Shown here piece by piece: positions 11,669 to 64,000 of a stretch of 64,000 bases of DNA (positions are counted from its first letter, which is position 1; each line of letters begins with the position of its first letter). A model generated the notes under the pieces. That model ran no database searches, was not told where the DNA came from, and saw nothing but the letters and a program-made list of their open reading frames with translations. Source of the DNA: an uncultured Chloroflexia bacterium (GTDB lineage Bacteria > Chloroflexota > Limnocylindria > Limnocylindrales > CSP1-4); assembly GCA_963795645.1 (NCBI GenBank), contig CAWCIK010000006.1, positions 1,298,259-1,362,258 of the forward strand, written 5' to 3'. The translations under genes and the position numbers were made by a program.

Positions 11669-11691
11669 CTCTGACCGAACGACTTTCTGCG

Positions 11692-44368: not shown

Positions 44369-45127
44369 CTAGTCGGTCACGGTCAGCGTGATCGTGTAGT
44401 CGCCTGGCGTTCGTGTACGTGTGCGTCTTGGGATTGGTCTTGGCCGAGGTCGTTGCCATCGCCGAAGTCCCACAACACCGAGACGATGTCGCCCGTGCTC
44501 TTGTTGGTGAGCGTGGCCGTGTCGCCGCTGACGCTGACTGAGAATTGGCCTTGGGTCCGCTCGGCGTGGGCGTGGCGGTCGGCGTCGGCTTGGGCGTCGG
44601 CTTCGGGGTCGGCTTGGCGGTGGGTGTGGGTGTCGGGCCGGTCCGCTGTGTCGGCGTGGGGGTGGGCGTGGGACCCGTCGGCTGCGTGGGAGTGGGCGTG
44701 GGCGTGGGGAAGTCGAAGCTGGGCGTGGGCGTGAAGAGGTCGGGCGTGGGTGAATCGGGGGCGAACGAGAAGAAGAACGGCGTGGGCGTGGGCTCGGGCG
44801 TCGGCTCGGGCGTGGGCGTCTCCTGGACGAAGACGGGCAGCGACGGGCCGGCCGACGCATCGCCCGCGAACAGGCCTGAGCCGGATCGGTTGGCTGAGGC
44901 GGCGTGGACAGGTAGATCGCGGCGCCGCCGCCGATGAACAGGAATAGCGCGAGAAGCGCAACTCCCAGGACCAGCACACCTCCGCCGCCGCCGCCGGCGG
45001 GCTCGGCAATTGCCGCCCGCCGGTATCCCGTGCCGCCGTATTTCGCGGCAAGCGGGAGTCGTTGTCGACATCGACTGCAGAAGGTGGCGCCAGCTGGGTT
45101 GCGCCGCCCGCAGTTAGGGCAGATCAA
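44369..45127 (-). pseudogene. Zn-ribbon / TM / Pro-Thr-linker / PKD-domain protein (paralog 2), at least 3 frameshifts
   Basis: TTG start; MICPNCG...CSRC; TM. The PT-linker reads in the frame of ORF 44358..45071. The PKD domain (FSVSVSGDTATLTNKSTGDIVSVLWDFGDG / KTNPKTHTYTNA / GDYTITLTVTD) is split over all three frames in 44369-44520 by two single-A insertions (GGCaACG, GCCaGGC). Confidence 0.6.
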
Positions 45128-50026: not shown

Positions 50027-51325
50027 TCAGTGCGTCCCGGGCGGGAAGAGCATGTTCCAGACGCGGGCGTGCTTGGGCACGTTCGAGCGCTGCGTATCGG
50101 GGTTGAGACCCAGGCCGACGCCGCAGTAGTAGGGGATGAGCTGGCCGGGCAGGACGGCCAGGACGGTGAACAGCACCTCGTCCTCGATCGGCAGGCGGAC
50201 GACGTAGTCGACGATGTCGGCGATCTTGTCGTCGTTCTGGCTGACGATCGCCACGGCCGGGCTCTTGAGCTGCTCGGTCACGCGGGCGATGTCGTGCAGG
50301 TCGCCATACGAGTCGCCCGGTGGCGCGACGAGCACGGTCAGGATCGATTCCTCGGTCAGGCCCAGCGCGCCGTGGATGTGGCGCCCGGGGTTCATCGACT
50401 TGGCCGGGATATGGCTCATCTCGTCGAACTTGAGCGCGATCTCCTCGGCCGTGCCGAAGTTCGCGCCGGCACCCACGACGAGCACGCTGCGCACGCCGAG
50501 GAACATGTCGGCGATCGTCCGGCAGCGCTTGTCGACAGCATCGAACATCTCGCCCATCAGGCGCGGCGTGTCGAGCAGCTGCGCCTGGAGCTTGTCGAAG
50601 TCGAACTTGCCCGGGTTGCGCAGCTTGCCCAGCTCGAGGGCCAGGTAGATCGCCGCGGCGATTCGAGTGGTGTAGTGGAAGGTGTCCGAGCCGCCGGTGT
50701 CGAAGCCGCCGGCGGTCAGGATGCGCGCGTCGCTGGCCTGCACTACCGGGCTGCCCTCGACGCTGGTGAGCGAGAGGGTGTACGCGCCGCGCTCGCGGCA
50801 CTCGCGCGCCGCGGCGACGGTGTCGACGGTGCTGCCGCTGCCCGAGTAGGCGACGGCGAGCAGCTTGCTGTAGTCGTACGGCGGCGGATAGCGCAGGAAC
50901 GCCTGCGAGTCGTAGTCCCAGCCGGGCACGCCCGCGAAGCGGGCAAAGGCCGCGTTGGCGACCTGGGCCACGAACTGCGAGGTGCCCGAGCCGAGACCCA
51001 CGATGCCCATGAAGTCGCGCTCGGCCAGCGTGCGCGCGACCTGCGCGATCTCGTCGGCGTGCTCGAAGGTCCCGCGCAGCGCCGAGGGCTGGCTCTTGAT
51101 ATCGCCGTACAGGTTGAACGGGTGATGGGTCTGGGCCGGAGTGCCGAGCGCCTTGTACATGATCGGCTCTTCGCCGGTCGCTTCGATCTGCTCGCGGATG
51201 TCGCCGACGATGCCCCAGGTCTTGATGCGCTGGCCGCGTTGCCGGACCTCGTCAAGGTCGACGGGTGCGCCGTCGGCCGATCCAGCGGCGCTCGGGGCCG
51301 TGCCTCGGTCGTGATCCTGTGGCAT
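50027..51325 (-). CDS. Double-SIS-domain sugar-phosphate isomerase/deaminase (AgaS/GlmS-C/FrlB-like)
   Basis: C-terminal 432 codons of the 1245-codon ORF. Own start ATG preceded by AAGGAG with an 8-nt spacer. Two SIS domains (GLGSGTSQFVA... and VVGAGANFGTAEEIALK...). Confidence 0.75.
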   Translation of the reverse strand: MPQDHDRGTAPSAAGSADGAPVDLDEVRQRGQRIKTWGIVGDIREQIEATGEEPIMYKALGTPAQTHHPFNLYGDIKSQPSALRGTFEHADEIAQVARTLAERDFMGIVGLGSGTSQFVAQVANAAFARFAGVPGWDYDSQAFLRYPPPYDYSKLLAVAYSGSGSTVDTVAAARECRERGAYTLSLTSVEGSPVVQASDARILTAGGFDTGGSDTFHYTTRIAAAIYLALELGKLRNPGKFDFDKLQAQLLDTPRLMGEMFDAVDKRCRTIADMFLGVRSVLVVGAGANFGTAEEIALKFDEMSHIPAKSMNPGRHIHGALGLTEESILTVLVAPPGDSYGDLHDIARVTEQLKSPAVAIVSQNDDKIADIVDYVVRLPIEDEVLFTVLAVLPGQLIPYYCGVGLGLNPDTQRSNVPKHARVWNMLFPPGTH

Positions 51326-53248
51326 GTCGTTCAACTCCTTGCGTGGATGCCAGCGCCAACCCGGGTGGTCCGGCCGGCTCCAGCCGCCGCGGGGCGGCTG
51401 GGAGGCCGACCGCGGACCAGGCACAGGTCCGCTGTCTGATGTGCTCGATCGGGATCCGGAAGCCGCGGCGGAGCCCGCGCTGCGCTCGTTCCTTGGCGGC
51501 ATGAGCGGCAGTGCCGGACGTCCGCCCGGTGCGGCGTGCGTCGCGCCATCCGTCGTGGCGGAGGGCACTGCCGGCCGGCCGTTCATGCCGGCGACCGCGC
51601 GGACGGCCTCATCGCGCAACCGGTTGCGCTGGACCTTGCCCGATTCGGTCATCGGGAAGGACTCGACGAAACGCACGTAGCGCGGCACCTCGAACCGGCC
51701 GAGGTGCTCGGCCAGGTGGCGCAGCAGCTCGTCCTCTGTCAGCTGCGCGCCTGCCGCCGGCCGCACGAAGGCGAAGATCTCCTCGCCGTAGTACTCAGAG
51801 GGCACGCCCACGACGTGCATCTCGGCGACCTTGGGGTGGCGCCGGCCGGCCGACTCGACCGCAGCCGGGTCGATGTTCTCGCCGCCGCGGATGATCATGT
51901 CCTTGATCCGTCCGACGATGCGCCAGACGCCGCTCGCGTCGACCGTGGCCAGGTCGCCGGTGTGCAGCCAGCCCTGGCGGTCGATAGCCTGGGCCGTTTC
52001 AGCGGGCATGTCGAAGTAGCCGCGCATGACCATCGAGCCGCGCGTGACCAGCTCGCCGGGCGTGCCGGCTGCGACCGGCTTGCCGGTGGCCGGGTCGATC
52101 GCGCGCACCTCTGCCCCCAGGATCGGCCGCCCGACACTGCCCAGGCGCACGTCCTCGGGATCGTCGATCGAGGTCTGGGTCACGACCGGCGCCGCCTCGG
52201 TCAGGCCGTAGGCAACGACCAGCTGCGGGATGTGCAGCTCGTGCGCCACGCGCCGACCCAGGTCGACCGGCACCGGGGCGCCGGCGATGATGCCCGTGCG
52301 CAGCGAGGACAGGTCCGTTCGCGTCCGCTCGGGGCTCTCGAGCAGGGCGACGAACATCGTCGGCACGCCATAGAGCACCGTGCAGTGCTCGGCGGCGACC
52401 GAGCGCAGCACAGCGTCCGCGTCGAAGACCTCGGACGGCAGCACGATGGCCGCCCCGTAGGTAACCGCCGCGAGCGTGCCCATGACCGCCCCGAAGCAGT
52501 GGTGGAAGGGGACCGGCAGACATACTCTGTCGCCGTTCGAGAGGCGGATGTTGGCGCCGACGGCAGCCGCGTTCTGGAGCATCGCCCGGTGCGTCAACTG
52601 GACGCCCTTGGGGAAACCGGTCGTGCCCGACGTGTACAGGATCATGCTCACATCGTCGGGCTGAGTCCGGCTCGCGGCGCGCGCCAGCTCGGCTTCGCTC
52701 GTGCCTTCGGCCGCGGCCGTGAAATCGGCCCAGCGCATGGCCGCGCCGGGAACGTCGGCGACCTCGGGCAGGGCAACGACGCGGCGCAGCGAGCGCGGCC
52801 CCTCGCCGCGAGCCAGGCGATCGAGGAGCGCGGTGCGCGGCTTGCGGTGAGTGCCGGCGATGAGCATGGCGGCCCCGGAGTTGGCCAGGATCTGCTCGAT
52901 CTCCTCGTCGCCCAGGCCGGCGTTGGCCGTGGCCACGATCACGCCCGCGTACGCCGCGCCGAGCTGCACGAGTGGCCACTCGGGCGCGTTGCGTGCCCAC
53001 ATGACGACCCGCTCACCCGGCGTGACGCCGAGCGCGAGCAGGGCGCGGCCCACCTGCTTGGCCTCGGCGTGGAGCTCGGCATAGTCGAGGCGCCTGCCGC
53101 TCGAGGCATGGACGAGAGCCTGACGCTGGCCGTTGCTGCGTGCTGCCCGATCGAGCAGCGCTCCGATGGTCGCGCTGCGCAGCTGGGGTTGGTGGCCGTT
53201 GCTGCCGGTCGCGGCCCTGCGCGCGAAGCCCGCCGGCGGCGCTGCGAC
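51326..53248 (-). CDS. AMP-forming acyl-CoA synthetase/ligase (FadD-like), reading through without a stop into the SIS gene frame
   Basis: Motifs ILYTSGTTGFPKGV, YGLTE, TGDL, IKDMIIRGGENI, ESGKVQR. Then an 85-aa low-complexity Pro/Ser/Arg tail with no stop codon before the SIS ATG. In another frame a TGA sits inside the SIS SD (AAGGAGTTGAACGACATG), as expected for a natural gene end. Boundaries approximate. Confidence 0.6.
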
Positions 53249-53764
53249 GGCGGCAAAGGCGGGCGTGGCCAGCAATGCGCCGAGCTCGGTCGCCCTGACC
53301 AGCAGGCCGGCCGCACCGCTGCGCAGCATCTGGTCGACCTCAGCGACGCCGGAGGCGGTGCCGATGACCGTCACACCCGGCGTGTCGCGCAGAGCGTCGA
53401 CCAGTGCGGGATCGCGCACGACGAGGGCGGTCGCGCCGCTCTCCACCGCGCGCCGCGCCTCGGCCGCGTTGGCGACCTGGGCCGCGATCGGCGCGCGACC
53501 GCGGCGGACGAGCTCGGTCACGAGCTGGTCTGTTGTCTCTGCCGGGCGATACAGGATGCCGGCACGGACCGGCAGCCGGGCCGCGAGCTGGGCGGGCGCG
53601 ATCTTGCCGTCGCGCTCGTCGATGCGCATGCACAACGTGTCGCCGGGCCGGCCGTAGAGCGGGCTGCTCCCGTTGACGACGATGATCGCGGCGATGCCCG
53701 ACGCGCGCGCGGCATCGAGCCCGGCGCGATCCTCGACCTCGACCCACAGGGCGGGCGTGCTCAT
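53249..53764 (-). CDS. Unknown about 170-aa alpha/beta domain (no confident family), first reading frame after the BMC shell genes; in frame with the ligase with no intervening stop
   Basis: ATG at 53764 overlaps the BMC-T stop (ATGA). Alternating hydrophobic beta-strand and Ala-rich helix pattern (GIAAIIVVNGSSPLYG ... ALVVRDPALVDALRDTPGVTVIGTASGVAEVDQML). Weak resemblance to KDPG-aldolase/OMPDC-like TIM folds, but catalytic Lys not found. Confidence 0.45.
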
Positions 53765-54411
53765 GCCGCGCTCCTGCGCGCGCCGCCGTCACGGCCGCTG
53801 AGCGATGCGAGCGCATCGAGTGCGCGCTCCTGGGCGATGCGCACGCTCGACTCCTCGCCGCTCACGTACAGCCGCCCGAATCGCCCGATGGGCCTGACAT
53901 CGATGATGTCGATATCTGCCGCGCGCTCGGCCTCGTTGGCGGCGAGCAGGATGTACGCCGCCGGCGTGACCTCGAGCACGAGCAGCGTCTCCTGGGGCAC
54001 CAGCAGCGAGCCCTTGCGGAAACGGTTCACCAGCTGGGCCTGGAAGGGCGTCACGTTGGTGATCAGGTTCTGCGACACGACCTGCGGTCGAAGGCGGTCG
54101 CCCTCGCTCAGGCCGATCCGCTCGAGAATGACGCGGCCCGCCTCGGCGACTTCCTGCGGGTCGGTCGCGTGGAGTGAGAGCATGCCGAACTCGCGCTCGA
54201 CGACCTGCGAGCTCGGACGCACGTTGGTCGCCTTGAGCGCCGCGTCGGCGAGCAGGTATATCTCGTTGCCCGGGGCGACCTCGATGAACAGCTGGGCCAT
54301 GCCGACGAGCGGGATGTCGCCATCTGCAACGGTCGCCTCGTAAGCCGCATAGCGCGGCTGCATGCGCGAGACGATGCCGTAGGCACGCAGCTCTCGACCG
54401 GCTCCGGGCAT
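53761..54411 (-). CDS. BMC-T shell protein (tandem/permuted BMC domains, EutL/PduB-like)
   Basis: Two BMC-like repeats (LFIEVAPGNEIYLLADAALKATNV and LLVLEVTPAAYILLAANEAERAADIDIIDV). Paralog of the BMC-T gene at 54707-55333. Start 3 nt after the EutN-like stop. Confidence 0.75.
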   Translation of the reverse strand: MPGAGRELRAYGIVSRMQPRYAAYEATVADGDIPLVGMAQLFIEVAPGNEIYLLADAALKATNVRPSSQVVEREFGMLSLHATDPQEVAEAGRVILERIGLSEGDRLRPQVVSQNLITNVTPFQAQLVNRFRKGSLLVPQETLLVLEVTPAAYILLAANEAERAADIDIIDVRPIGRFGRLYVSGEESSVRIAQERALDALASLSGRDGGARRSAA

Positions 54412-54414
54412 CAC

Positions 54415-54705
54415 TCAGACCTTGGTGTACTTGATCTTGCCGCCCTGGCGGACGGATTCGACGATGGCCACGATCGCGGCGTCGACGGGCACGCCATCGA
54501 TGCCGAGGGAACGTGCGGCCGGCGTGCCGCGCACGACGATGACCAGCTCCCCTTCGCCGGCGCCGACCGAGTCAGCCGCCACGTAGGCCTGGCCGGTGCC
54601 GGAACCATCGGCCGCTGCCTCCTCAACGAGGAGCAGCTTCATTCCTGTCAGCCGCGGCTCCTTGACCGAGGCTACGGCGCTGCCGACAACTCGTGCGAGC
54701 TGCAT
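54415..54705 (-). CDS. BMC vertex protein (BMC-P; EutN/PduN/CcmL family)
   Basis: 96 aa: MQLARVVGSAVASVKEPRLTGMKLLLVEE...GELVIVVRGTPAARSL...AAIVAIVESV is the EutN_CcmL fold signature. Strong SD GGAGGAGG. The ORF's upstream part is spurious. Confidence 0.85.
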   Translation of the reverse strand: MQLARVVGSAVASVKEPRLTGMKLLLVEEAAADGSGTGQAYVAADSVGAGEGELVIVVRGTPAARSLGIDGVPVDAAIVAIVESVRQGGKIKYTKV

Positions 54706-54706
54706 C

Positions 54707-55333
54707 TCAACCTCCTCCCGCGCCAACCGGCGCGACGCTCGATTCGCTGCGCAACGCGTCCACGACGGCGAGTGCCGTCTGCTCCGCAGCTGCGGCGTCC
54801 GCTTCGGTCCCGGCGACGAGCAAGCGTCCGAACAGACCCGTGCCGGCGACGCGCACCAGCTTGATGTCGACCGCCTTCTCGAGCTCGTTGGCCAGCACAT
54901 AGACGTACGCGGCGGGCGTGACCTCCATCACGAAGAGCGCGTCGCCGGGCAGCGTCCAAGCGCCGCGCCGCACCTTGTTGAACAGCTGGCTGTGGTCCGG
55001 AGCGATGTTCGGCAGCAGCTGGGTCGAGACCACTCTCGGCTCCAGCCGGTCGGACATGCGCATGCCGAGCTCGTCGAGGATCGCCTCGGATGCCTCGAGC
55101 ACCACGTCCGGCGCAGGCGCGTGGAGCTCGAGCAATCCGAAGTCACGCTCGATCAGCGTTCCCGCCGACCGAACGTCGCTGGCCTTCATGGCCCGATCCG
55201 TCAACGGGAAAACGGCATTGCTCGGCGAGACCTCGACCAGCAGCTGCGAGTACCCGGCACGGGGCATCGAGCCCTGTGCCATCAGCCCCCAATAGGCCGC
55301 GTACTGCGGACCCATGCGGTCGACATGGGCCAT
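54707..55333 (-). CDS. BMC-T shell protein (tandem/permuted BMC domains, EutL/PduB-like)
   Basis: 208 aa from MAHVDRMGPQYAAYW. Repeats LLVEVSPSNAVFPLTDRAMKASDV and LFVMEVTPAAYVYVLANELEKAVDIKLV. The ORF's long N-terminus is spurious. Confidence 0.78.
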   Translation of the reverse strand: MAHVDRMGPQYAAYWGLMAQGSMPRAGYSQLLVEVSPSNAVFPLTDRAMKASDVRSAGTLIERDFGLLELHAPAPDVVLEASEAILDELGMRMSDRLEPRVVSTQLLPNIAPDHSQLFNKVRRGAWTLPGDALFVMEVTPAAYVYVLANELEKAVDIKLVRVAGTGLFGRLLVAGTEADAAAAEQTALAVVDALRSESSVAPVGAGGG

Positions 55334-55368
55334 CACCCGCAGGCTGGTGCCGCTCGAGGCGGCGATCG

Positions 55369-55665
55369 TCACCCTTCGGCGACCATGATCGACTCGACCG
55401 CGTCGTCGGGCCGGGCGATGACGTGCTGGCTGACGAGCTCGCCGACCTTCTGGGCAGCCATGCCGCCGGCCTCGACCGCGGTCTTCACCGCGCCGACCTC
55501 GCCCTTGACGATGACCGTGACCAGGCCGTCGCCGACGAGCTGGCGCGACATGAGCGTGACCTGGGCCGCCTTGACCATTGCGTCGGCGGCCTCGACCGCG
55601 GCCACCAGGCCACGTGTCTCGATCATGCCGATTGCCGTTCCCGCTCCGCGGGCTGACTCTGCCAT
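55369..55665 (-). CDS. BMC-H shell protein (PduA/EutM/CcmK-like hexamer)
   Basis: IGMIETRGLVAAVEAADAMVKAAQVTLMSRQLVGDGLVTVIVKGEVGAVKTAVEAG is the canonical Pfam BMC (PF00936) sequence; SD AAGGAGG. Confidence 0.9.
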   Translation of the reverse strand: MAESARGAGTAIGMIETRGLVAAVEAADAMVKAAQVTLMSRQLVGDGLVTVIVKGEVGAVKTAVEAGGMAAQKVGELVSQHVIARPDDAVESIMVAEG

Positions 55666-55725
55666 TTCGGTTTCCTCCTTGTCCTTGCCTGAGATTGCCT
55701 TTGATTGACGGGGTGGCTGCTGGGC

Positions 55726-56019
55726 CTAGGGCTCCCTCCCTTCGAAGCGGAAGGCTCGATCGACCTCTTCGAACAGGCGCCCGAAAGTGCGCCCGCCGAT
55801 GAGCGTTCCCAGCCGGGAGGCCACCGCGCTTCCCGCGGCGACGGCCTCGTTGACCGCGGCGATGTCGCCGCGACATACGATCGTCACCAGCCCGTCGCCG
55901 ATAAGCACGGGGCCGGCGAGCCTGACCGGGGCGGACTTGGCCATCACGTCGGCAGCTCCGATCGCCCCGGTCAATCCACGCACCTCGACAAGTCCCACAG
56001 CACTGCCTCCGCCGCTCAC
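55726..56019 (-). CDS. Divergent BMC-H shell protein
   Basis: VGLVEVRGLTGAIGAADVMAKSAPVRLAG...GLVTIVCRGDIAAVNEAV matches the BMC domain core, but the C-terminus diverges. GTG at 56019 overlaps the Fe-ADH stop (GTGA); an internal GTG at 55998 with a GGAGG SD is an alternative start. Confidence 0.8.
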   Translation of the reverse strand: MSGGGSAVGLVEVRGLTGAIGAADVMAKSAPVRLAGPVLIGDGLVTIVCRGDIAAVNEAVAAGSAVASRLGTLIGGRTFGRLFEEVDRAFRFEGREP

Positions 56020-57158
56020 AGGGCGCGCTCGAACAGGCGCACCACGTCCTGCTCGCTCATGGGCCGCGGGTTGGTGGTCATGGTCAGATCAGCCATCGCG
56101 CGCGCGGCCAGATCCGGGATGCGCTCGCGCTCCACCCCAAGTGTGCCCAGGCCCTTGGGCAGCCCGATGCGGTCTCCGAGCCGGCGCAGCAGCGCAGGCA
56201 GGCGACGCGCGGACGCGCCCGGGGCGAGGATGCGCGCGACGCGCGCGTAGCGCTCACGAGCCGCCGGCTCGTTGTACTCGACGACATGGGGCAGCACGAT
56301 CGCGTTGCAGATGCCGTGGGGCAGGTCGTAGACGCCGCCCAGCGCGTGGGCCATGGCGTGCACCGCGCCGACGAGGGCCGAGTTGATCGCCAGCCCGGCG
56401 AGCAGCGCGCCGAGCATCATCGAATCGCGCGCCTCCAGGTCGTCGCCGTCCTCGACGGCCCGCTCCAGTGAGCCCGCGATCAGCTCGACCGCGCGCAGGG
56501 CATAGAGGTCGGTCATGTCCGACGCGAGCGTCGACACGTATGCCTCGATGGCGTGCGTCAGCGCGTCGAGGCCGGAGGCAACGGTCACGTTGCGCGGCAG
56601 TCCGACCGTCAGCAGCGGATCGTTGATCGCCAGGCGGGGCATCAGGTGCCGGTCGGCGATGATCATCTTCAGCTCGCGCGCAGGATCGGTGATGACCGCG
56701 TAGCGGCTCACGTCCGCGCCGCTGCCGGAGGTCGTGTTGACGCAGATCAGGGGCACCGAGCGATGCGCCGAGCGATCGACGCCCTCCAGGTCGCGTATTT
56801 CGCCGCCGTTGGCCGCGACGAGGGCGACGGTCTTGGCGCAGTCGTGCGCGCTGCCGCCGCCGACAGAGACGACGACCGCGACGTCGCGCCCGGCGCCGGC
56901 GTCGAGCGCCTCCTCGACCTGGCCGACGGTCGGATTTGGTTCGACTCGATCGAACACGATCACCTCCACGCCGGCGTCGCCCAGAGTGCGGTCGACGGAG
57001 CGCAGGATGGAGCTCGCGGCCAAACCGCGATCGGTGATGACCAGAGCTGTGCGCCCATAGCCTCGTGCGGCGGGGCCGAGCGTCGACAGCGCGCCGCGGC
57101 CGAAATTGATGCGCGGCGGAAGGTGGATCTCGGCGACGGACGGCATGCTCGCGGTCAT
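56016..57158 (-). CDS. Iron-containing alcohol dehydrogenase (FucO/PduQ/EutG-like)
   Basis: 380 aa; GGGSAHDCAK NAD-binding motif; Fe-ligand histidines (HAMAHALGG...LPHGICNA). Start ATG overlaps the ALDH stop (ATGA). Confidence 0.88.
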   Translation of the reverse strand: MTASMPSVAEIHLPPRINFGRGALSTLGPAARGYGRTALVITDRGLAASSILRSVDRTLGDAGVEVIVFDRVEPNPTVGQVEEALDAGAGRDVAVVVSVGGGSAHDCAKTVALVAANGGEIRDLEGVDRSAHRSVPLICVNTTSGSGADVSRYAVITDPARELKMIIADRHLMPRLAINDPLLTVGLPRNVTVASGLDALTHAIEAYVSTLASDMTDLYALRAVELIAGSLERAVEDGDDLEARDSMMLGALLAGLAINSALVGAVHAMAHALGGVYDLPHGICNAIVLPHVVEYNEPAARERYARVARILAPGASARRLPALLRRLGDRIGLPKGLGTLGVERERIPDLAARAMADLTMTTNPRPMSEQDVVRLFERAL

Positions 57159-58651
57159 CGGTCGCTCTCGGCGAACCAGTCGGTCGAGTGCTCGGCGAGG
57201 TTGACGTAGACGTTCTTGACCTCGGTGAACGACTCGATCGCGTGCGGCCCGTTCTCGCGTCCCCAACCGCTCTGACGGAAGCCGCCGAATGGTGCCTCGC
57301 TGGTGACGACGTTGTACATGTTGACCCAGATCGTGCCCGCCCTGATCGCGCGCGCCACGCGGTGCGCGAGCTTCACGTCGCGCGTCCAGACGCCCGCGGT
57401 CAGGCCGAAGATCGTGTCGTTGGCGATCCGGATCGCGTCCTCGGGCGTGTCGAAGGGCATGATCGCCACGACCGGGCCGAAGATCTCCTCGCGCGCAATG
57501 CGCATCTCGGGATGAATGTCGACAAAGACTGTCGGCGCTATGTAGTTGCCCCGCGCGAGCTCCGGCGCGGACGGCTTGACGCCTCCGATCAGCAGTCGCG
57601 CACCTTCCTCCCGACCTGAGCGGATGTGGTCCATGACGCGCGAGCAGTGGGTCGGCGAGATCAGTGGCCCGACGTCCGTCCGTGGATCAAGCGGATCGCC
57701 CATGCGCAATGCACCGGCGCGCTCGGTGAAGCGGGCGACAAAGGCGTCGAAGATGGGCCGCTGGACGAGCAGCCGCGAGCCGGCCGTGCAGATCTGACCC
57801 TGCGTCCAGAAGACGCCGAAGAGCGCGCCTGCGACGGCATCCTCGAGGGGCGCGTCCGCGAAGACGATGTTGGGCGCCTTTCCGCCCAGCTCGAGCGACA
57901 CACGCTTGAGGTTGCCTGCCGCCCCGGCGGCGATCTGCTTGCCAACGTCGGTCGAGCCGGTGAACGTGATCTTGTCGACGTCGGGGTGCTCGACCAGCGC
58001 CTGGCCGACCTTCGAATCTCCGATGACGACGTTGATCACGCCGGGCGGCAGGCCCGCTTCCTGGCAGATCTCGCCCAGGCGCAGTGTCGTCAGCGGCGTG
58101 TCGGACGCCGGCTTGATGACGACCGTGTTGCCCGCTGCCAGCGCTGGTCCGAGCTTCCAGGAAGCAAGCAGGAGCGGGAAATTGAAGGGCGTGATCGCGC
58201 CGACCACGCCGAGCGGCTCGCGCAGCGTGTAGCTCAGCACGTCGCCCGGAACCGGCAGCGTCTCGCCGGTGATCTTGGTCGCGAATCCGGCCCAGTACTC
58301 GAAGCAGTCGGCCGAGAGCGGCACGTCGATCTGGCTGCTCTCACGGATCGGTTTGCCGTTGTTGCGCGTCTCGAGCTCGGCGATGGCCTGGTTGTCACGC
58401 TCCATCAGAGCGGCGACGCGGAGCAGGTAGCGTCCGCGCTCGCTGGCCGACATGCGCGGCCACGGCCCCTCGTCGAACGCGCGCCGCGCCGCGGCAACGG
58501 CGGCATTGAGGTCGCGCAGGTCACCGGCCGGGACCTCGGCCAGCGGCTCGCCCGTGGCCGGGTTGTGGACGGTGGTCAGCCGGCCGCTGGCAGGCGCGAC
58601 CCAGCGGCCGTCGATGAGCTGGTTGGGGAAGGTCAACAGCGGGCTCGTCAC
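57155..58651 (-). CDS. NAD(P)-dependent aldehyde dehydrogenase, classical non-acylating type (AldA / betaine-aldehyde-DH-like)
   Basis: ITPFNFPLLL, VIKPASDTPLTT, ELGGKAPNIVFADA, GQICTAGSRL (catalytic Cys), EEIFGPVVAI, PFGGFRQSGWGRENG. Not the PduP/EutE acylating type. GTG start placed at MTSPLLTFPNQLIDGRW; a CTG overlapping the permease stop is an alternative. Confidence 0.85.
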   Translation of the reverse strand: MTSPLLTFPNQLIDGRWVAPASGRLTTVHNPATGEPLAEVPAGDLRDLNAAVAAARRAFDEGPWPRMSASERGRYLLRVAALMERDNQAIAELETRNNGKPIRESSQIDVPLSADCFEYWAGFATKITGETLPVPGDVLSYTLREPLGVVGAITPFNFPLLLASWKLGPALAAGNTVVIKPASDTPLTTLRLGEICQEAGLPPGVINVVIGDSKVGQALVEHPDVDKITFTGSTDVGKQIAAGAAGNLKRVSLELGGKAPNIVFADAPLEDAVAGALFGVFWTQGQICTAGSRLLVQRPIFDAFVARFTERAGALRMGDPLDPRTDVGPLISPTHCSRVMDHIRSGREEGARLLIGGVKPSAPELARGNYIAPTVFVDIHPEMRIAREEIFGPVVAIMPFDTPEDAIRIANDTIFGLTAGVWTRDVKLAHRVARAIRAGTIWVNMYNVVTSEAPFGGFRQSGWGRENGPHAIESFTEVKNVYVNLAEHSTDWFAESDR

Positions 58652-58659: not shown

Positions 58660-59610
58660 TCAGTCCCTGAACCGGTCGAGCGAGATGGCCACGATCAGGA
58701 TCGCGCCGAGCAGGACACGCTGGTACTCGGAATCGACGTGGAGCAGGATCAGGCCGTTGAGCAGGCTGGCCAGGAAGATCGACGCTATAAGCGTGTTCTC
58801 GATCCGGCCTCGACCGCCCTGCAGTCCGGCACCGCCGAGGATGACCGCGGTCAGGACCGGAAACAGCGCCGCATCGCCGAGCGACGCCGTCGCCTGCGAT
58901 ACGCGCGATACCCAGACCACTCCACCCAGGCCGGCCAACGCCCCAGCTGCGATGAAGACGGCCATCCGAATCCGATTGACGCGGATGCCCGCACGGAACG
59001 CCGCCTCGCGGTTGTCGCCGACGAGGTAGACATGGGCGCCGAACGGAGTCCGGTTGAGGATGAACCAGGCGATCGTGTAGCCGATGAACATGAGCAGGAC
59101 CGGGATGGGCACGATGCCGATGTAGCCGCCCGCCAGCCAGTCGATCGGATCGAGCGCGGGACCGGTGATCGCGTGGCCCTGCGTATAGACCAGGCCAATG
59201 CCGAGCACGACGCTGAGCATGCCCAGAGTGGCTACGACCGACGGGATGCGGAAGAAGGTCACGAGTGTGCCGTTCACCACGCCGACAAGCGTGCCGATGA
59301 GAACCGCGGCGCCGATCGCGATGATCGGGTCGTAGCCCGAGACGAGCAGCTCCGCGGCGGTCACGCCGGCGACGCCGATGACGCTGCCGAACGAGAGGTC
59401 GAGCTCGCCGACCAGGATGACGAACGTCGCGCCGATGGCCGGGATGGCATAGATCGAGGCCTGGCGCAGGAGGAGCGGGATATTCCGCTCGGTCAGGAAC
59501 GTGTCCGTGGTGAACGACAGGAAGATGATCCAGCCGATGAAGAAGACGATGAAGCCGTAGTCGGCCAGGAAGTCGATGACGCGGACCCGGATGGGCGTGC
59601 GGTGCAGCAT
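58660..59610 (-). CDS. Sugar ABC transporter permease (RbsC/BPD_transp_2 family)
   Basis: 8-10 TM segments and the conserved GG.G...N.L...D.G motifs of monosaccharide ABC permeases. ATG at 59610 chosen (a TTG at 59664 is the alternative). Confidence 0.8.
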   Translation of the reverse strand: MLHRTPIRVRVIDFLADYGFIVFFIGWIIFLSFTTDTFLTERNIPLLLRQASIYAIPAIGATFVILVGELDLSFGSVIGVAGVTAAELLVSGYDPIIAIGAAVLIGTLVGVVNGTLVTFFRIPSVVATLGMLSVVLGIGLVYTQGHAITGPALDPIDWLAGGYIGIVPIPVLLMFIGYTIAWFILNRTPFGAHVYLVGDNREAAFRAGIRVNRIRMAVFIAAGALAGLGGVVWVSRVSQATASLGDAALFPVLTAVILGGAGLQGGRGRIENTLIASIFLASLLNGLILLHVDSEYQRVLLGAILIVAISLDRFRD

Positions 59611-59630
59611 GGGGACGTCGGCCGCGACGC

Positions 59631-61793
59631 TCACGAGGCCGGCTCCAGGCGCAGCACGGCACAACCCTGCGGCGGCACCTCGAACGTGAACGACACGACA
59701 TCTTCGTCGCCGGTCGCGTTGTTCGCCGCGATCGGCGGAGCCGACGCGTTGACGCTGACCGCGTTGTAGGCGACGCCGGCCTCAAGGCCGACTCTCGTGC
59801 GCGGCAGGTTGACCGTGACCTGGCGCGCAAAGCGCGAGTCGCCCATCCAGCCCGACTCGAGGTTGCCCAGCAGCAGGTGGATGCGCCCATTGCTACGCCA
59901 GCAGCTGACCGTGACCGGCTCGTGGGCGGCCACCTGGTCGACGCTCAACCCACCGCTTTGGGCGGCGCGATCGTTGAGCAGACGGGCGACCTCCACGTAC
60001 GGGTTGACGCTGCCGATCTGCGAATGAGGGACGAGCGGGTTACCCGGGTCGGCCAGGTCGGGCGGTTGCCAGTGGTAGACGCCGTCGCGACCGGCGAGAA
60101 GAGGCAGACCATCGGACGCGTAGCCGATCCAGGTGCCTTCGTCGGCGCTCAGCGCGCTGCGCTCGGGCAGGTGAACACGTTCCTCGGGCGCCAGGTCGTG
60201 GCTCGACGGCGCTCCGAGACGGTAGCCATCGGGCTGGCGTTCGCCGGTCAGGGCGACGCCCGCCGCGGTCAGGAGCGCCGGCTCGACCAGGTCCGCCCGG
60301 CCGCTGCCGACGAGTGCACCCCAGCGGCCATCGAGCTTTCCCGCTGCCGCTGCCGACGGCATCTGCCAGAGCAGGCCGTCGGGCCACTGCCCGGGCAGCC
60401 ACTCTGGGCGGCTGGCGGCCAGGAAGGCCGCCCCCCATTTGAGCGCCATTCCGGCATAGTCCTCGGCCCACTCGCTGCCGTTGCTGGCCGGGTCGTGCTC
60501 GTACTTGGCCTCGAGGCCGGCCCGGTCATGGACGAGCAGCGGCCCGAAGACGGCCTCGATGCCAGCGGCGCTCGACTCTGCCGCGGCCAGCCGCGTGGCA
60601 AGGAAGTCGACGTCCTGCGTGCTGATCAGGCGCTTGTTCCAGTCGTTCATCCAGCTGATGTAGGTCCCCTCGGGAACCACCGGCCGGCCGTCGCGATCGA
60701 GCACAGCGGCGTGGCCGAAGGCCCACATCGCCCATTCGAGCTTTCCCGGCGTGTCGTGCAGCGTGTCCCACGGCTCCCAGCCGTCCCAGGTCTCGATCAA
60801 GTTGTATTGGCGGCACGGGCTTGCCCCTGTCGCGGCGCGCGTCTCGTTGCCGCCGCGGATCTGGGCGCCGTGGCCGAGCAGGTAGGCGAGCTGGAAGGTC
60901 CAGCCCTTCCAAGTGTCATCCCACCAGTCTTGCCAGGCACCGCCCCAGGTCTGGTCGATGAAGATGTCGAGTGCGCCGTCGGCGACTATCGCCTCCAGGT
61001 CGACGCAGCCGGCGAGCCACTCCGACGTGCCGCTGATGCCGCTCGAATAGGTCATCACCAGGCCTTCGGGATGGGCTTCCTTGCACGCCCGGAAGAGGCG
61101 CCGGACAGCGTCGGTCCACGAGCGGTTCTCGTCCGGGTCGCTCGAGGCGACGCTGCCATACGGGCCTACGCGGGTGTAGAGCAGCGGGCCGAACATGCCG
61201 TCGCGCAGGTGGATCAGGTCGAGCCCGAGATAACGGGCGACCGAGCCCCACTGGGCGCCGAAGAACTCTGGAAAGGGCTCGCCCTCGGCGATGCCGTCGG
61301 GCCGAGTCGCGTAGCGGTACGAGTCGGCATGAAGCCGCACTCGAGGATCGAGGTCGGGTCCGGGCAGGGGCGAGATGTCGAGCGGATAGAGCTCGGGATG
61401 GCGGTCGTACCAGAACGAATAGAGGTCGTACATGCTGCCCGTATCAGGCGGGGCCACGACCTGGCCGAGACCGGCGATGAGCACGCCCATCTTGATGTCG
61501 GTCAGGCCGTGCGCGGCATACGCCGCACGGAGCGAGGAGATGAACTCGCGCAGGTCGGCATAGCTGAGGCCGGCCCAGCGCGCGTAGCGGCGGGAGCGGA
61601 GCGGCAGCGGCTGGTCGCCGCTGCCGCTCCATTCGGTTACGAGATCGGCCAGCCAGCCGATGTTGAAGCAGACGCCGCGCAGATCACGCTCACCCGCCAA
61701 CAGGGGCAGGGTGCGCTCGGCAAACTCGACCTGGCGGTCGGCCCAGGGCCGTTCGCCAAACCAGTCGATGTCCACCTCGATCCAGCGGTCCAC
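59631..61793 (-). CDS. Hypothetical 720-aa cytoplasmic protein (Trp-rich; possibly glycoside-hydrolase-like TIM barrel) embedded in the sugar ABC transporter gene set
   Basis: GTG start with GAGGGAGA SD 25 nt after the SBP stop; no signal peptide; many W/Y/D residues (QTWGGAWQDWWDDTWKGW); no family recognised. Confidence 0.55.
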   Translation of the reverse strand: MDRWIEVDIDWFGERPWADRQVEFAERTLPLLAGERDLRGVCFNIGWLADLVTEWSGSGDQPLPLRSRRYARWAGLSYADLREFISSLRAAYAAHGLTDIKMGVLIAGLGQVVAPPDTGSMYDLYSFWYDRHPELYPLDISPLPGPDLDPRVRLHADSYRYATRPDGIAEGEPFPEFFGAQWGSVARYLGLDLIHLRDGMFGPLLYTRVGPYGSVASSDPDENRSWTDAVRRLFRACKEAHPEGLVMTYSSGISGTSEWLAGCVDLEAIVADGALDIFIDQTWGGAWQDWWDDTWKGWTFQLAYLLGHGAQIRGGNETRAATGASPCRQYNLIETWDGWEPWDTLHDTPGKLEWAMWAFGHAAVLDRDGRPVVPEGTYISWMNDWNKRLISTQDVDFLATRLAAAESSAAGIEAVFGPLLVHDRAGLEAKYEHDPASNGSEWAEDYAGMALKWGAAFLAASRPEWLPGQWPDGLLWQMPSAAAAGKLDGRWGALVGSGRADLVEPALLTAAGVALTGERQPDGYRLGAPSSHDLAPEERVHLPERSALSADEGTWIGYASDGLPLLAGRDGVYHWQPPDLADPGNPLVPHSQIGSVNPYVEVARLLNDRAAQSGGLSVDQVAAHEPVTVSCWRSNGRIHLLLGNLESGWMGDSRFARQVTVNLPRTRVGLEAGVAYNAVSVNASAPPIAANNATGDEDVVSFTFEVPPQGCAVLRLEPAS

Positions 61794-61817: not shown

Positions 61818-63908
61818 CTACTGACCCTGACCCATGTACGTGGAGACCGGCACTTCGAGCGAGTTCGGCACCAGCGCTCCGGCCATCAGCTTGGCGATGG
61901 CGTTGGCCGCCAGCGTGCCTGTGCCGGCGGGGTTGGTGTCGACGCAGCCGCGGTACATCGTGCCCTGGTCGATCAGGGTGACCGCCGCGGGATCACAGTC
62001 GATGCCGAAGATGGCTACGTCATCGGCCGTCTTGCCGGCCTGGTCGAGGTACTGGTAGGCGCCCAGGTCGCCGCCGTCGTTGATGCCGGTGACGAGCCTG
62101 ATGGCGGGGAACGCGGTGAAGGCCGTCTCGGTCGAGGCGACCGCGTTTTCGGCCAGACCGCCGAGGTAGCGGCCGACGACGTTGACGTTCGGGTTGGTTT
62201 CGGTGAGGCCCTGCTGGATCGCGTCGGCGCGAGCGACCAGGTCGGGGATGTCGGGGTAGTCGAGGATCATCGTCTGGACTTCCTCGCCGGGCCACGTCTG
62301 GGCCGCGAAGGTGCCCGCCGAGCGGCCTTCCTGGAGGCCGATAGTCAGGTTGTCGACGCTGATGCCGACGGCGCCCGTGTCACCCAGATCGAGTCCGGTG
62401 ACCTGGACCACGATGATGCCATCGTTGATCGCGGTCGTGGCCGCATCGCCTACGGTCGCCGACGAGCTGGTCGTGATGATCGCCGCGACGCCGTCCTGGA
62501 CGAAGCCCTCGAAGCACTGCAGCGCCTTGTCGGCGTCAGTCTGCGAATTGCAGATGTTGACCGTGGCGCCCATGGCTTCGAGTGCGTTCTTGGCCGTGTT
62601 GTTGAGCAGCGTGTGGTACTCGGTCTCCATCGTCGTGGCGACGATGCCGACCGTCTTGCCGGCCAGCGCGGCCGATGCTGCGGTCTGCTCCTCGGGGGTG
62701 AGCTCGAAGTCCGAGCCCTGGCCCTTCTGGCCGAGTGCCACGGCGCCGTTGCCAACCGAGACCTTGCCCTGGTAGGTCGAGACCGGAACCTCGACACTGC
62801 CCGGAACGTCCGCTCCGGCCATCAGCTTGGCGATGGCGTTGGCCGCCAGCGTGCCTGTGCCGGCGGGGTTGGTGTCGACGCAGCCGCGGTACATCGTGCC
62901 CTGGTCGATCAGGGTGACCGCCGCGGGATCACAGTCGATGCCGAAGATGGCTACGTCATCGGCCGTCTTGCCGGCCTGGTCGAGGTACTGGTAGGCGCCC
63001 AGGTCGCCGCCGTCGTTGATGCCGGTGACGAGCCTGATGGCGGGGAACGCGGTGAAGGCCGTCTCGGTCGAGGCGACCGCGTTTTCGGCCAGACCGCCGA
63101 GGTAGCGGCCGACGACGTTGACGTTCGGGTTGGTTTCGGTGAGGCCCTGCTGGATCGCGTCGGCGCGAGCGACCAGGTCGGGGATGTCGGGGTAGTCGAG
63201 GATCATCGTCTGGACTTCCTCGCCGGGCCACGTCTGGGCCGCGAAGGTGCCCGCCGAGCGGCCTTCCTGGAGGCCGATAGTCAGGTTGTCGACGCTGATG
63301 CCGACGGCGCCCGTGTCACCCAGATCGAGTCCGGTGACCTGGACCACGATGATGCCATCGTTGATCGCGGTCGTGGCCGCATCGCCTACGGTCGCCGACG
63401 AGCTGGTCGTGATGATCGCCGCGACGCCGTCCTGGACGAAGCCCTCGAAGCACTGCAGCGCCTTGTCGGCGTCAGTCTGCGAATTGCAGATGTTGACCGT
63501 GGCGCCCATGGCTTCGAGTGCGTTCTTGGCCGTGTTGTTGAGCAGCGTGTGGTACTCGGTCTCCATCGTCGTGGCGACGATGCCGACCGTCTTGCCGGCC
63601 AGCGCGGCCGATGCTGCGGTCTGCTCCTCGGGGGTGAGTGTCAGATCGTCGGCCGTCCCCTTCTGACCGACGAGGACGCTGCCGTTACCCGAAGCGGGTG
63701 TGCTCGGCGCCGCTGTCTCGGGCGCCGCTGTCACGGGCGCCGCTGTCTCAGGCGCCGCTGTCACGGGCGCCGCTGTCACAGGTGCCGCCGTTGCCGTTGG
63801 CTCCGGCGCAGCGCTCGCAGGCGCCGCTGTGGGCGACGCCGTCGGCGTGCCCGAGCACGCCGCGACCATCAGTACGGCCGCCGCGGCCGTCAACCAGGTT
63901 CGCTTCAT
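61818..63908 (-). CDS. Lipoprotein sugar-binding protein (periplasmic-binding-protein type I, RbsB-like) with two tandem binding modules
   Basis: ATG with AGAGGAGG SD; lipobox LMVAAC-S; Ala/Pro/Thr linker encoded by tandem 18-bp repeats (63700-63800); then two about 312-aa PBP modules that are 100% identical at the nucleotide level over about 830 bp. Confidence 0.8.
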   Translation of the reverse strand: MKRTWLTAAAAVLMVAACSGTPTASPTAAPASAAPEPTATAAPVTAAPVTAAPETAAPVTAAPETAAPSTPASGNGSVLVGQKGTADDLTLTPEEQTAASAALAGKTVGIVATTMETEYHTLLNNTAKNALEAMGATVNICNSQTDADKALQCFEGFVQDGVAAIITTSSSATVGDAATTAINDGIIVVQVTGLDLGDTGAVGISVDNLTIGLQEGRSAGTFAAQTWPGEEVQTMILDYPDIPDLVARADAIQQGLTETNPNVNVVGRYLGGLAENAVASTETAFTAFPAIRLVTGINDGGDLGAYQYLDQAGKTADDVAIFGIDCDPAAVTLIDQGTMYRGCVDTNPAGTGTLAANAIAKLMAGADVPGSVEVPVSTYQGKVSVGNGAVALGQKGQGSDFELTPEEQTAASAALAGKTVGIVATTMETEYHTLLNNTAKNALEAMGATVNICNSQTDADKALQCFEGFVQDGVAAIITTSSSATVGDAATTAINDGIIVVQVTGLDLGDTGAVGISVDNLTIGLQEGRSAGTFAAQTWPGEEVQTMILDYPDIPDLVARADAIQQGLTETNPNVNVVGRYLGGLAENAVASTETAFTAFPAIRLVTGINDGGDLGAYQYLDQAGKTADDVAIFGIDCDPAAVTLIDQGTMYRGCVDTNPAGTGTLAANAIAKLMAGALVPNSLEVPVSTYMGQGQ
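61875..63638. repeat. In-frame tandem duplication, period 936 bp; 61875-62702 is identical to 62811-63638
   Basis: Line-by-line comparison at offset 936 shows identity. The ORF track shows identical antisense ORFs 62020..62295 and 62956..63231 and matching + ORFs 62311 and 63247. Flanks diverge (C-terminus ...VPVSTYMGQGQ vs the inter-module ...VPVSTYQGKVSVGNG). Confidence 0.85.
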
Positions 63909-64000
63909 GAGGCCTCCTCTGTCTGTTTGGCCCTGAACCGTGGGCTCCATCCCCCGTTGTGTTGCTGCCGGCCGTCCCGTTCCCTAATGCGGGTATTCAG

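Follow-up and report, generated by a model that had tools for sequence, protein, structure and literature searches.

A classical-type aldehyde dehydrogenase heads a bacterial microcompartment gene cassette with its own acyl-CoA ligase in uncultured Chloroflexota

Introduction

What does an aldehyde dehydrogenase that looks hydrolytic do directly upstream of bacterial microcompartment (BMC) shell genes, in the place where an acylating enzyme is normally encoded? The question is raised by a stretch of 64,000 nucleotides from an uncultured Chloroflexia bacterium (Limnocylindria; Limnocylindrales; CSP1-4; assembly GCA_963795645.1, contig CAWCIK010000006.1, positions 1,298,259 to 1,362,258 of the forward strand), which is called the window in the following. 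In it, the genes of an aldehyde dehydrogenase (ALDH) and of an Fe-dependent alcohol dehydrogenase (Fe-ADH) precede a set of shell genes within an operon for sugar uptake and metabolism. The usual metabolosome core consists of an acylating ALDH, a phosphotransacylase for recycling coenzyme A (CoA) within the shell, and, for the regeneration of NAD+, an alcohol dehydrogenase (ADH). An initial annotation of the window had read the pair as a lactaldehyde branch point of the AldA/FucO type, with a redox and CoA logic different from that of known metabolosomes. Covered by it were neither the acyl-CoA ligase encoded after the shell genes nor the fact that ALDH, ADH, shell and ligase genes behave as a cassette. 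Taking these together, we tentatively read the ALDH and the Fe-ADH as the first two genes of a self-contained BMC cassette in which an ATP-dependent ligase would supply the CoA step, a reading that we hold with somewhat less than even confidence.

The aldehyde dehydrogenase is of the classical type

The ALDH (498 aa) is encoded on the minus strand by an open reading frame (ORF) with a GTG start, exactly at 57155-58651, and matches PF00171 over the entire profile (positions 1-461 of 461, E=3.7e-183). All hydrolytic motifs that had been quoted for it are present, namely ELGGKAP at residue 254, GQICTAGSR at residue 285 with the catalytic Cys288, EEIFGPVVAI at residue 388 and PFGGFRQSGWGRE at residue 454, and the Asn of the PFNFP motif is found as N157. 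The counterparts in ALDH2 are the Cys C302, the general-base Glu E268, which acts in hydrolytic deacylation, and the oxyanion Asn N169. In alignments C288, E254 and N157 are invariant across the clade of the window ALDH, and EutE and AdhE carry Ala or Val at the position of the general-base Glu. The top 60 PDB matches are all hydrolytic enzymes (E down to 3e-145), among them ALDH2, ALDH1A1-3 and betaine-aldehyde (BADH), phenylacetaldehyde and hydroxymuconic-semialdehyde dehydrogenases. Among six hydrolytic ALDHs of Escherichia coli K-12 used as references, PuuC is 44% identical to the window enzyme, BetB and AldB 43%, FeaB 42% and GabD 39%, and AldA is with 37% the least similar. EutE aligns merely in part (23% over 308 aa, E=1e-6) and the N-terminal domain of AdhE with 27% over 194 aa, which bears out the statement that the enzyme has nothing of the PduP/EutE type. 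A neighbor-joining (NJ) tree, the placement that had been proposed as a check, sets the ALDH inside the hydrolytic group, apart from the branch of AldA and GabD, with EutE and AdhE as a distant outgroup and thus not among the CoA-acylating enzymes. None of the NCBIfam equivalog cut-offs is reached; the top model is that for BADH (569 bits vs 669), and the AldA model NF007497 gives 362.8 bits against a cut-off of 500. Judged from its residues and its position in the tree, the window ALDH is almost certainly a classical, CoA-independent NAD(P)+ enzyme, but not specifically AldA-like.

The enzyme could nevertheless be CoA-acylating despite its hydrolytic hallmarks, in the manner of methylmalonate-semialdehyde dehydrogenase (MMSDH), and the locus would then encode a conventional metabolosome. 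The MMSDH family does lie in the classical branch of PF00171, and its CoA-acylating model TIGR01722 gives 305 bits with the ALDH. This score is, however, far under the cut-off of 448 and also under those of about 20 hydrolytic families (BADH 569), the general-base Glu is conserved, and the locus encodes no phosphotransacylase that could use an acyl-CoA, but has a separate CoA ligase. We therefore regard a CoA-acylating ALDH as extremely improbable.

One position distinguishes the cassette-linked enzymes from their relatives. Where ALDH2 has Glu195, all cassette-linked ALDHs carry Ser or Pro (S183 in the window, encoded at 58094-58120 on the minus strand), whereas the nearest unlinked relatives in the sister clade carry Glu. 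Ser or Pro at this position may shift or broaden cofactor use towards NADP+. An exact-sequence look-up of the window ALDH and ADH found no record for either.

A second ALDH-like sequence, far from the shell genes at 33286-35851 on the plus strand, is spread over two reading frames. Its identity to the cassette ALDH amounts to 34% across 33286-34038 and to 27% across 34088-34519, and PF00171 positions 270-416 are matched at the start of the ORF 34112-35851. Either the gene is frameshifted or fused, or the split stems from an error in sequencing.

The alcohol dehydrogenase and the lactaldehyde reading

The Fe-ADH (56016-57158, minus strand, 380 aa) can be assigned by its family matches (PF00465, 3.5e-46; PF25137, 1.2e-60) and its motifs to the group III Fe-dependent alcohol dehydrogenases. 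It contains GGGSAHD at residue 100, LDALTHAIEA at residue 197, VHAMAH at residue 266 and LPHG at residue 279, and thus the GGGS dinucleotide motif as well as the D..H and H..H Asp/His metal ligands, and its Asp41 is of the NAD type. Its identity is 42% to YiaY, 36% to FucO and 34% to EutG, and among its PDB matches FucO ranks behind methanol dehydrogenase, Zymomonas ADH2 and the 1,3-propanediol oxidoreductase DhaT. The FucO-type models stay well under their cut-offs (TIGR02638, 331 vs 523; NF007911, 288 vs 537), so that by these comparisons the label FucO-like is too specific.

These results bear on the AldA/FucO branch point proposed for the locus, according to which lactaldehyde from a 6-deoxyhexose pathway of the fucose or rhamnose kind would be distributed between the two enzymes in a BMC operon. 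A pair of ALDH and Fe-ADH is indeed present, the lactaldehyde reductase score of 331 bits is sizeable though sub-threshold, and BMCs of the PVM type process fucose and rhamnose through lactaldehyde. On the other hand, AldA and FucO are poor matches in sequence, model score and, for FucO, also in structure ranking, and the locus tables contain no class II fuculose/rhamnulose-1-phosphate aldolase (PF00596), no FGGY kinase and no fucose or rhamnose isomerase; the sugar enzymes encoded there are of the SIS, PfkB and tagatose types. The lactaldehyde branch point did not stand up to these comparisons and is very unlikely.

A cassette that is present or absent as a block

The ALDH is tightly coupled to the Fe-ADH and to the shell genes. 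As had been described, the ATG of the ADH gene shares bases with the TGA of the ALDH gene (ATGA, -4 nt), which is read directly in the sequence, and both lie directly upstream of the shell genes; moreover, the TGA of the ADH gene shares bases with the GTG at which the first shell gene begins (GTGA, -4 nt). Across the 13 genes between 63950 and 48052, neighbours lie -34 to +60 nt apart. No terminator-like site lies between these genes; the scan gave 4 sites against 3.3 expected, the single one on the minus strand falling within the ALDH coding sequence. The promoter and terminator scan showed nothing exceeding expectation, and Rfam gave 0 matches.

The ALDH and ADH genes, two BMC-H genes, a BMC-Tdp, a BMC-P and a second BMC-Tdp gene, and a ligase with an additional N-terminal domain form one cassette of about 7.4 kb (~51263-58651), flanked on one side by the permease gene of an ABC-transporter operon for a sugar or amino sugar and on the other by the SIS gene of that operon. 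All of its genes are on the minus strand. The first shell protein (BMC-H1, 55726-56019) is divergent, with a PF00936 match of E=2.8e-18 and 41% identity to EutM of E. coli, and the second (BMC-H2, 55369-55665) is canonical (E=2.2e-27; 57% identity to EutM) and 84-91% conserved among the loci. They are followed by a tandem-domain BMC-Tdp protein of the CsoS1D/CcmP kind (54707-55372), whose GTG start overlaps the BMC-H2 stop and whose orthologues match PF27545 (CsoS1D_N), by a BMC-P pentamer protein of the EutN/CcmL family (54415-54705; PF03319, E=3.5e-26; 39% identical to EutN), and by a second BMC-Tdp protein (53761-54414; PF00936, E=8.4e-8; CsoS1D_N in orthologues), so that PF00936 is matched three times in the window in addition to PF03319. 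The last cassette gene is fused in the window to the SIS gene of the host operon. It encodes a protein of 1245 aa that consists of an N-terminal domain of about 190 aa (53195-53764), an AMP-forming acyl-CoA ligase domain (51590-53194; PF00501, E=1.5e-94, and PF13193), a low-complexity tail or linker (51263-51589) and a double-SIS domain (50027-51262).

The cassette was found in about 20 Chloroflexota or metagenome loci. ALDH homologues with 61-93% identity form about 77 clusters, and every one of them with a readable contig shows the same ALDH-ADH-shell arrangement. The identity of the ALDH to that of the window is 93% in locus L001, 79% in L002, 76% in L003, 71% in L004 and L005, 68% on a JGI contig and 62% in L027. 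The gene order is the same in L001-L005, L016, L018, L027, L029, L036, L038, L044, L049 and others, with complete synteny in L016 and L018. Since all related loci for which enough sequence is at hand show the arrangement again, the neighbourhood of ALDH, ADH and shell genes is not a chance juxtaposition. The named carrier genomes are Chloroflexota, namely Chloroflexi GWC2_73_18, 'Candidatus Limnocylindrales' and metagenome-assembled genomes (MAGs) of Chloroflexota or Chloroflexia, and the locus offers a function-linked handle on abundant uncultured soil Chloroflexota of the Limnocylindria kind. An ALDH relative with 55% identity, P0082, has no BMC context. In L027, ligase and SIS are encoded by separate overlapping genes, and therefore the fusion is not universal; this locus has a single BMC-H gene and lacks BMC-H1. 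L025, with ALDH, two BMC-H and BMC-P, had been considered as an independent minimal BMC, which was rejected as it also holds fragments of the second BMC-Tdp and of the ligase N-terminal domain and is a decayed copy. Frame breaks occur within conserved genes of several related MAG contigs, for example in the ligase N-terminal domain of L002 and L003 and in many genes of L018. They are consistent with indel errors of long-read assembly, and the genes called there fall short of the true proteins.

A metagenome scan with an alignment of UNK, a GH42-like protein encoded in the host operon, gave 60 loci, onto which the locus proteins were mapped. Among them, the module of regulator, binding protein, GH-like protein and permease occurs in four settings. 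It is followed by ALDH, ADH, shell genes, ligase-SIS and the kinase K1 in setting A (11 loci plus those found via the ALDH), by a stand-alone SIS and K1 directly after the permease in setting B, by a K1-like kinase and an FAD amine oxidase in setting C, and by a two-domain ATPase, SIS and K1 in setting D, which in one case includes a GatZ/KbaZ-like protein. Three setting-B loci, L040, L052 and L070, are close to the window, with 71-73% identity of the permease, 75-78% of the SIS and 64-67% of K1. In these loci the gap from permease to SIS is about 55 nt, and neither ALDH, ADH, shell gene, N-terminal domain nor ligase is present. Their SIS proteins (75-78%) are no more distant from that of the window than those of other setting-A loci (72-73%); the stand-alone SIS proteins of cassette-free loci in general are 56-78% identical to it. 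Moreover, an NJ tree of UNK, drawn without support values, places the cassette-free L040 and L052 within the clade of cassette-bearing loci.

Since ALDH, ADH, shell genes and N-domain plus ligase are present or absent together between the permease and the SIS gene, they behave as a single unit. Among the data presented here, this joint presence and absence is the strongest evidence available that ALDH and ADH belong functionally to the compartment, and gene content of this kind likewise shows the ligase as part of the same device. Close relatives with and without the cassette furthermore represent a natural experiment on what a BMC contributes to a pathway.

The acyl-CoA ligase and the CoA logic

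The AMP-forming CoA ligase is always encoded immediately 3' of the shell genes in the cassette loci. In NCBIfam it matches PRK12583 (fatty-acid CoA ligase family, 566 bits), and its PDB matches are feruloyl-, 4-coumarate-, FadD13-, oxalyl- and malonyl-CoA ligases. Neither the window nor any of seven related loci shows a detectable ALDH of the EutE/AdhE type or a homologue of Pta, and the phosphotransacylase families PF06130 and PF01515 are absent from all locus gene tables. Because no acylating ALDH and no Pta-type phosphotransacylase are encoded nearby, the CoA logic differs from that of canonical metabolosomes, and the proposal that such a difference follows where a hydrolytic ALDH replaces an acylating enzyme is supported. 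A compartment with its own ATP-dependent CoA ligase raises the question of how ATP, CoA and acyl-CoA cross the shell, for which the two BMC-Tdp proteins are candidates.

The N-terminal domain of the ligase is conserved in all cassette loci and known from cassette-bearing loci only. It gave no consistent Pfam match at E-values up to 10 and one database homologue in a word search, and its AlphaFold2 (AF2) model, which is of modest confidence, has generic TIM-barrel matches, in line with a small beta/alpha TIM-barrel-like fold. Its motifs are LWVEV, SPLYGRPGD and LPVRAG; a role as aldolase is unsupported because no Lys is invariant. The tail contains two conserved motifs, PPRxGWxRPxxxxWxW (51344-51397) and LPLMxP(K/R) (51491-51511), which occur in the loci with the fusion as well as in L027, where the ligase is unfused, but not in stand-alone SIS proteins. 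The N-terminal domain and the Pro/Trp-rich tail are the sole cassette-specific extensions, both on the ligase, and judging from this distribution they are candidates for shell targeting. A segment before the SIS domain ('GQRIKTWGI...') was considered as an internal encapsulation peptide and rejected, as it also occurs in the stand-alone SIS proteins of cassette-free loci.

For the ALDH and the ADH themselves, the search for encapsulation helices, which had been suggested as a further check, gave no support. Neither carries a recognisable encapsulation peptide. The ALDH has no N-terminal extension, and its short C-terminal DWF tail is also found in the unlinked homologues P0082 and P0106; the N-terminal extensions of the ADH vary and are unconserved across loci. 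Neither enzyme has a terminal extension relative to non-BMC homologues, and both are putative cargo of the compartment. A hydrophobic-moment scan for amphipathic terminal helices was discarded, since the signal of EutE (0.43) was not separated from those of the negative controls. The locus thus raises the question how enzymes are targeted without classical encapsulation peptides.

This lack of signals, together with the uninformative helix scan and the restriction of cassette-specific extensions to the ligase, would fit a different reading, in which ALDH and ADH are ordinary cytosolic enzymes that share the operon, while the shell encloses other cargo, for example the ligase-SIS fusion alone, or forms a compartment that does not handle aldehydes. 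Both enzymes are, however, gained and lost with the shell genes and translationally coupled to them, and the ALDH clade of at least 61% identity is met only in these loci, the 55% relative P0082 being without BMC context. Furthermore, the aldehyde dehydrogenases (AldDhs) of the BMC types ARO, MIC1 and MIC2 are also without encapsulation peptides and are yet regarded as BMC enzymes. Cytosolic enzymes that merely share the operon are therefore unlikely.

A proposed pathway

In the pathway that we propose, we infer that ALDH, ADH and ligase are encapsulated, what the aldehyde is and where it comes from, and in which direction the ADH works. An imported compound would be split by the GH42-like protein. 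Its sugar part could then pass via K1, SIS, the second kinase K2 and a tagatose- or ketose-bisphosphate aldolase to triose phosphates, and the cassette would handle a non-sugar alcohol or aldehyde moiety. The Fe-ADH would interconvert alcohol and aldehyde on the NAD(H) pool, the ALDH would turn the aldehyde into the free acid in an irreversible oxidation that needs no CoA, and the ligase would make the acyl-CoA at the cost of ATP, thereby replacing acylating ALDH and phosphotransacylase. The two large-pore BMC-Tdp proteins would be the likely route for bulky cofactors or phosphosugars. That the aldehyde would come from a non-sugar moiety is suggested by the cassette-free relatives, which retain the GH-like protein, K1 and SIS and can evidently deal with the sugar.

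Alternatively, K1, SIS, K2 and the aldolase could yield dihydroxyacetone phosphate and an aldehyde (glyceraldehyde, glycolaldehyde, lactaldehyde or glyceraldehyde 3-phosphate) in the compartment, and this sugar-derived aldehyde could be dismutated, with the ALDH oxidising one half to acid, the Fe-ADH reducing the other to alcohol, NAD+ being recycled between them and the ligase salvaging the acid. AldDh and alcohol dehydrogenase are the standard cofactor-recycling pair of metabolosomes (PMC8217296), aldolases of the LacD type or class II ketose-bisphosphate aldolases are encoded beside many of the loci, the SIS domain is physically fused to the ligase, and the catalog links BMC-Tdp proteins to sugar-phosphate BMCs. 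The cassette-free relatives, however, retain UNK, K1 and SIS, and their sugar catabolism evidently runs to completion with neither ALDH nor ADH. The aldolase is moreover encoded outside the operon, belongs to two unrelated types and is missing within 10 kb in L002 and L004, K2 is not called in GWC2_73_18, and a bisphosphate aldolase would yield phosphorylated trioses only. Dismutation of a sugar-derived aldehyde is in our estimation improbable, and by this comparison the serial oxidation from alcohol via aldehyde and acid to acyl-CoA is slightly favoured over it.

Several observations weigh against the serial pathway as well. The ligase matches just generic medium-chain or aromatic CoA ligases and stays under every equivalog cut-off, and besides the ADH the cassette contains no recognisable aldehyde-generating signature enzyme. 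In the alignments ALDH and ADH lack terminal extensions relative to non-BMC homologues, and the change represented by S183 may, judging from the residue, impair the sharing of NAD(H) with the NAD-type ADH. The UNK tree carries no support values, and all cassette examples are metagenome-assembled and known from comparative genomics of uncultured organisms.

A bolder version of the serial pathway would make the locus a new metabolosome class that runs on ATP and NAD(P) instead of an internal CoA/phosphate cycle, in which the ALDH would detoxify the confined aldehyde to the acid and the dedicated ligase would deliver the thioester, the degenerate TIM barrel and the Trp/Pro-rich tail would be a new shell-targeting signal, and the whole would be a portable cassette that sugar-utilisation operons could acquire or lose. 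This is conceivable, although rather doubtful.

Comparison with known BMC types

The 2021 BMC catalog with its 68 types holds no match among the type descriptions that were compared. It does list the shell proteins A2X23_10740/45/50 of GWC2_73_18 with the label bmcType=UA (main)(omitted), and this contig carries the locus described here, as its ALDH orthologue P0045 is 71% identical to that of the window and A2X23_10710 is the UNK orthologue. From this label it follows that the locus type has been seen once and left unassigned. In the literature on microcompartments of Dormibacterota and Limnocylindria, and on BMCs with an acyl-CoA synthetase or a non-acylating dehydrogenase, no description of this locus type was found.

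The AldDh tree of the catalog has two CoA-dependent branches with ARO as sole outlier (PMC8217296), and the AldDh of ARO is set apart from every other BMC AldDh, as it has no encapsulation peptide and stands outside the CoA-dependent family (PMC10470539). The actinobacterial ARO type (PMC8217296, PMC10470539) therefore resembles the cassette in its non-CoA-dependent pfam00171 AldDh that converts an aldehyde to the free acid and is without encapsulation peptide. In contrast, the ARO enzyme is a 2-aminomuconate-semialdehyde dehydrogenase acting after a ring-cleavage dioxygenase and that of the window is BADH/ALDH2-like, the ARO shell comprises two BMC-H together with a single BMC-P whereas the window shell has two BMC-Tdp, and ARO loci of Actinobacteria have neither Fe-ADH, CoA ligase nor sugar enzymes, whereas the Chloroflexota cassette lies in a sugar operon. 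The ring-opening dioxygenase pair (pfam02900) that is the signature of ARO is absent from the locus tables. Going by sequence relationships, the cassette would be the second, unrelated BMC case with a CoA-independent ALDH after ARO, the only precedent known. Hence the expectation of a logic different from known metabolosomes stands with respect to the CoA logic of canonical metabolosomes, but was overstated as a general claim since ARO is already CoA-independent (PMC10470539). If the assignment is true, there would be two phylogenetically unrelated CoA-independent BMC types, and the acylating core would not be obligatory.

In the PDU and EUT types, as in the window, the shell genes cluster with those of an ALDH and an Fe-type ADH. 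Their core (PduP/EutE, PduQ/EutG, PduL/EutD) differs in having an acylating AldDh and a phosphotransacylase in place of a hydrolytic-type ALDH and an AMP-forming CoA ligase, and in having encapsulation peptides, none of which is recognisable in the window cassette. An alcohol dehydrogenase that generates the aldehyde for a subsequent aldehyde dehydrogenase is known from the ETU compartment of Clostridium kluyveri, where no other signature enzyme is needed. Unlike the window cassette, ETU has acylating acetaldehyde dehydrogenases, is clostridial and contains neither a CoA ligase nor a sugar module. The SPU type (PMC8217296, PMC11585597) is similar in its location among sugar-phosphate enzymes, its BMC-Tdp and the PF01791-family aldolase near some loci. 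It differs by DeoC (PF01791) and RpiB (PF02502), by having BMC-P as a triplet and by an acylating AldDh that bears an encapsulation peptide, whereas the window type has no RpiB/PF02502, a single BMC-P, a LacD-type aldolase outside the operon and a hydrolytic ALDH. RMM1 likewise has two different Tdp proteins, and MIC1 and MIC2 share the AldDh without encapsulation peptide. In the tree of BMC AldDhs, however, the enzymes of these three types fall within the major branch that is EutE-like, and their enzyme sets are different, with an aminotransferase and a kinase in one and lactate/malate dehydrogenase and glutamine synthetase in the other.

A different BMC locus with an AMP-binding CoA ligase was seen in L019 (Chloroflexota SMAG_U4645, DASXRR010000052.1) at 1700-15200. 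It encodes a family-5 binding protein, two cupins (DUF4437), hydantoinase A/B, an amidohydrolase, BMC-P, BMC-H, BMC-Tdp and an isochorismatase, and no ALDH was seen in it. Possibly, this is another unclassified BMC type that carries a CoA ligase.

The host sugar operon and neighbouring genes

The operon that hosts the cassette begins on the minus strand with the gene of a sugar-binding lipoprotein of the CUT2 type (Peripla_BP_4, 61818-63950) that has RbsB/XylF-like matches in two stretches. The gene carries the entire Peripla_BP_4 domain twice, as a head-to-tail duplication, and contains identical shadow ORFs of 91 aa at a distance of 936 nt (62020-62295 and 62956-63231), and the N-terminal linker of the protein is rich in Pro, Ala and Thr. 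Orthologues of the binding protein were found in all related loci; the double form is also present in L001 and L018, and the other loci have a single protein of about 360 aa. The permease (BPD_transp_2, ribose/arabinose/allose type by family match) is encoded at 58660-59664, and its stop lies 8 nt before the GTG start of the ALDH.

Between both lies the gene of UNK (59631-61793), a cytoplasmic protein of 720 aa without any Pfam or NCBIfam match. Its AF2 model (pLDDT 90.9, pTM 0.93) consists of a TIM barrel and two further domains with a predicted GH42/GH35/GH164-like fold. In a Foldseek search against the PDB it matched GH42 beta-galactosidases (E~1e-16), a GH164 beta-mannosidase and an archaeal exo-beta-D-glucosaminidase. 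The homologues form 264 clusters and also occur in Actinobacteria (Microcella), and the gene always lies between a CUT2 binding protein and its permease. Based on the model, UNK probably acts in the cytoplasm as a glycoside hydrolase and represents an undescribed family, and the locus provides a handle on these 264 clusters of GH42-like proteins without family assignment.

Downstream of the cassette, the SIS domain (PF01380) belongs to the GlmS-type double-SIS isomerases, deaminases or deglycases of sugar phosphates, with PDB matches to the isomerase domain of GlmS (E=4e-24) and to a SIS-type glucosamine-6-phosphate deaminase. It is followed by the PfkB-family sugar kinase K1 (48996-50012, minus strand), which has no equivalog match but an orthologue in the cassette-free loci, and by the PfkB kinase K2 (48052-48996, minus strand) of the 1-phosphofructokinase/tagatose-6-phosphate kinase subfamily (TIGR03168, 226.6 vs cut-off 216.4). 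The aldolases, of the LacD type or class II, adjoin many loci outside the operon and were recognised by NF009498 (LacD-type, 250 vs cut-off 184) and TIGR00167 (240 vs 216).

In L023, L047, L048, L053, L054 and L063, which are from metagenomes and Microcella, an FAD amine oxidase replaces the SIS beside the PfkB kinase. This swap parallels two known routes of C-N cleavage in Amadori compounds and amino sugars and thus hints at the substrate class. Because of this alternation, the likeness of UNK to an exo-glucosaminidase, and the tagatose-type kinase and aldolases, the gene content suggests an amino-sugar or a glycated amine as substrate, no equivalog threshold being reached. Known modules of this kind, i.e., the archaeal GlmA/GlmD chitin route, the Aga route from galactosamine to tagatose 6-phosphate and FrlD/FrlB, resemble the host operon in its GH42/GH35-like protein, PfkB kinase, GlmS-type SIS, LacC-like kinase and tagatose- or ketose-bisphosphate aldolases. 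However, none of them is BMC-associated, and the window members reach no equivalog cut-off, with the GH-like protein in no described family. Three other substrates were considered and rejected. For sulfoquinovose there is no match at the level of YihT, and the aldolase is LacD-type; for myo-inositol via malonate semialdehyde there is none at the level of IolC or IolJ, K1 reaching 77 bits with IolC against a cut-off of 300; and for a ribulose monophosphate (RuMP) pathway of formaldehyde there is none at the level of HPS or PHI, the SIS being a GlmS-type double domain.

Two genes on the plus strand converge on the 3' end of the operon. One encodes a HAD-family sugar phosphatase-like protein (47270-47974), which has the same position in L001-L005 and L018, and the other an ABC transporter ATPase with a single nucleotide-binding domain (46416-47216), of which orthologues with 73-79% identity adjoin the related loci. 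Further away, two adjacent paralogous ORFs on the minus strand (43477-45127) start with a zinc-ribbon-like MICPNCG sequence, which is followed by a long Pro/Thr-rich stretch of low complexity.

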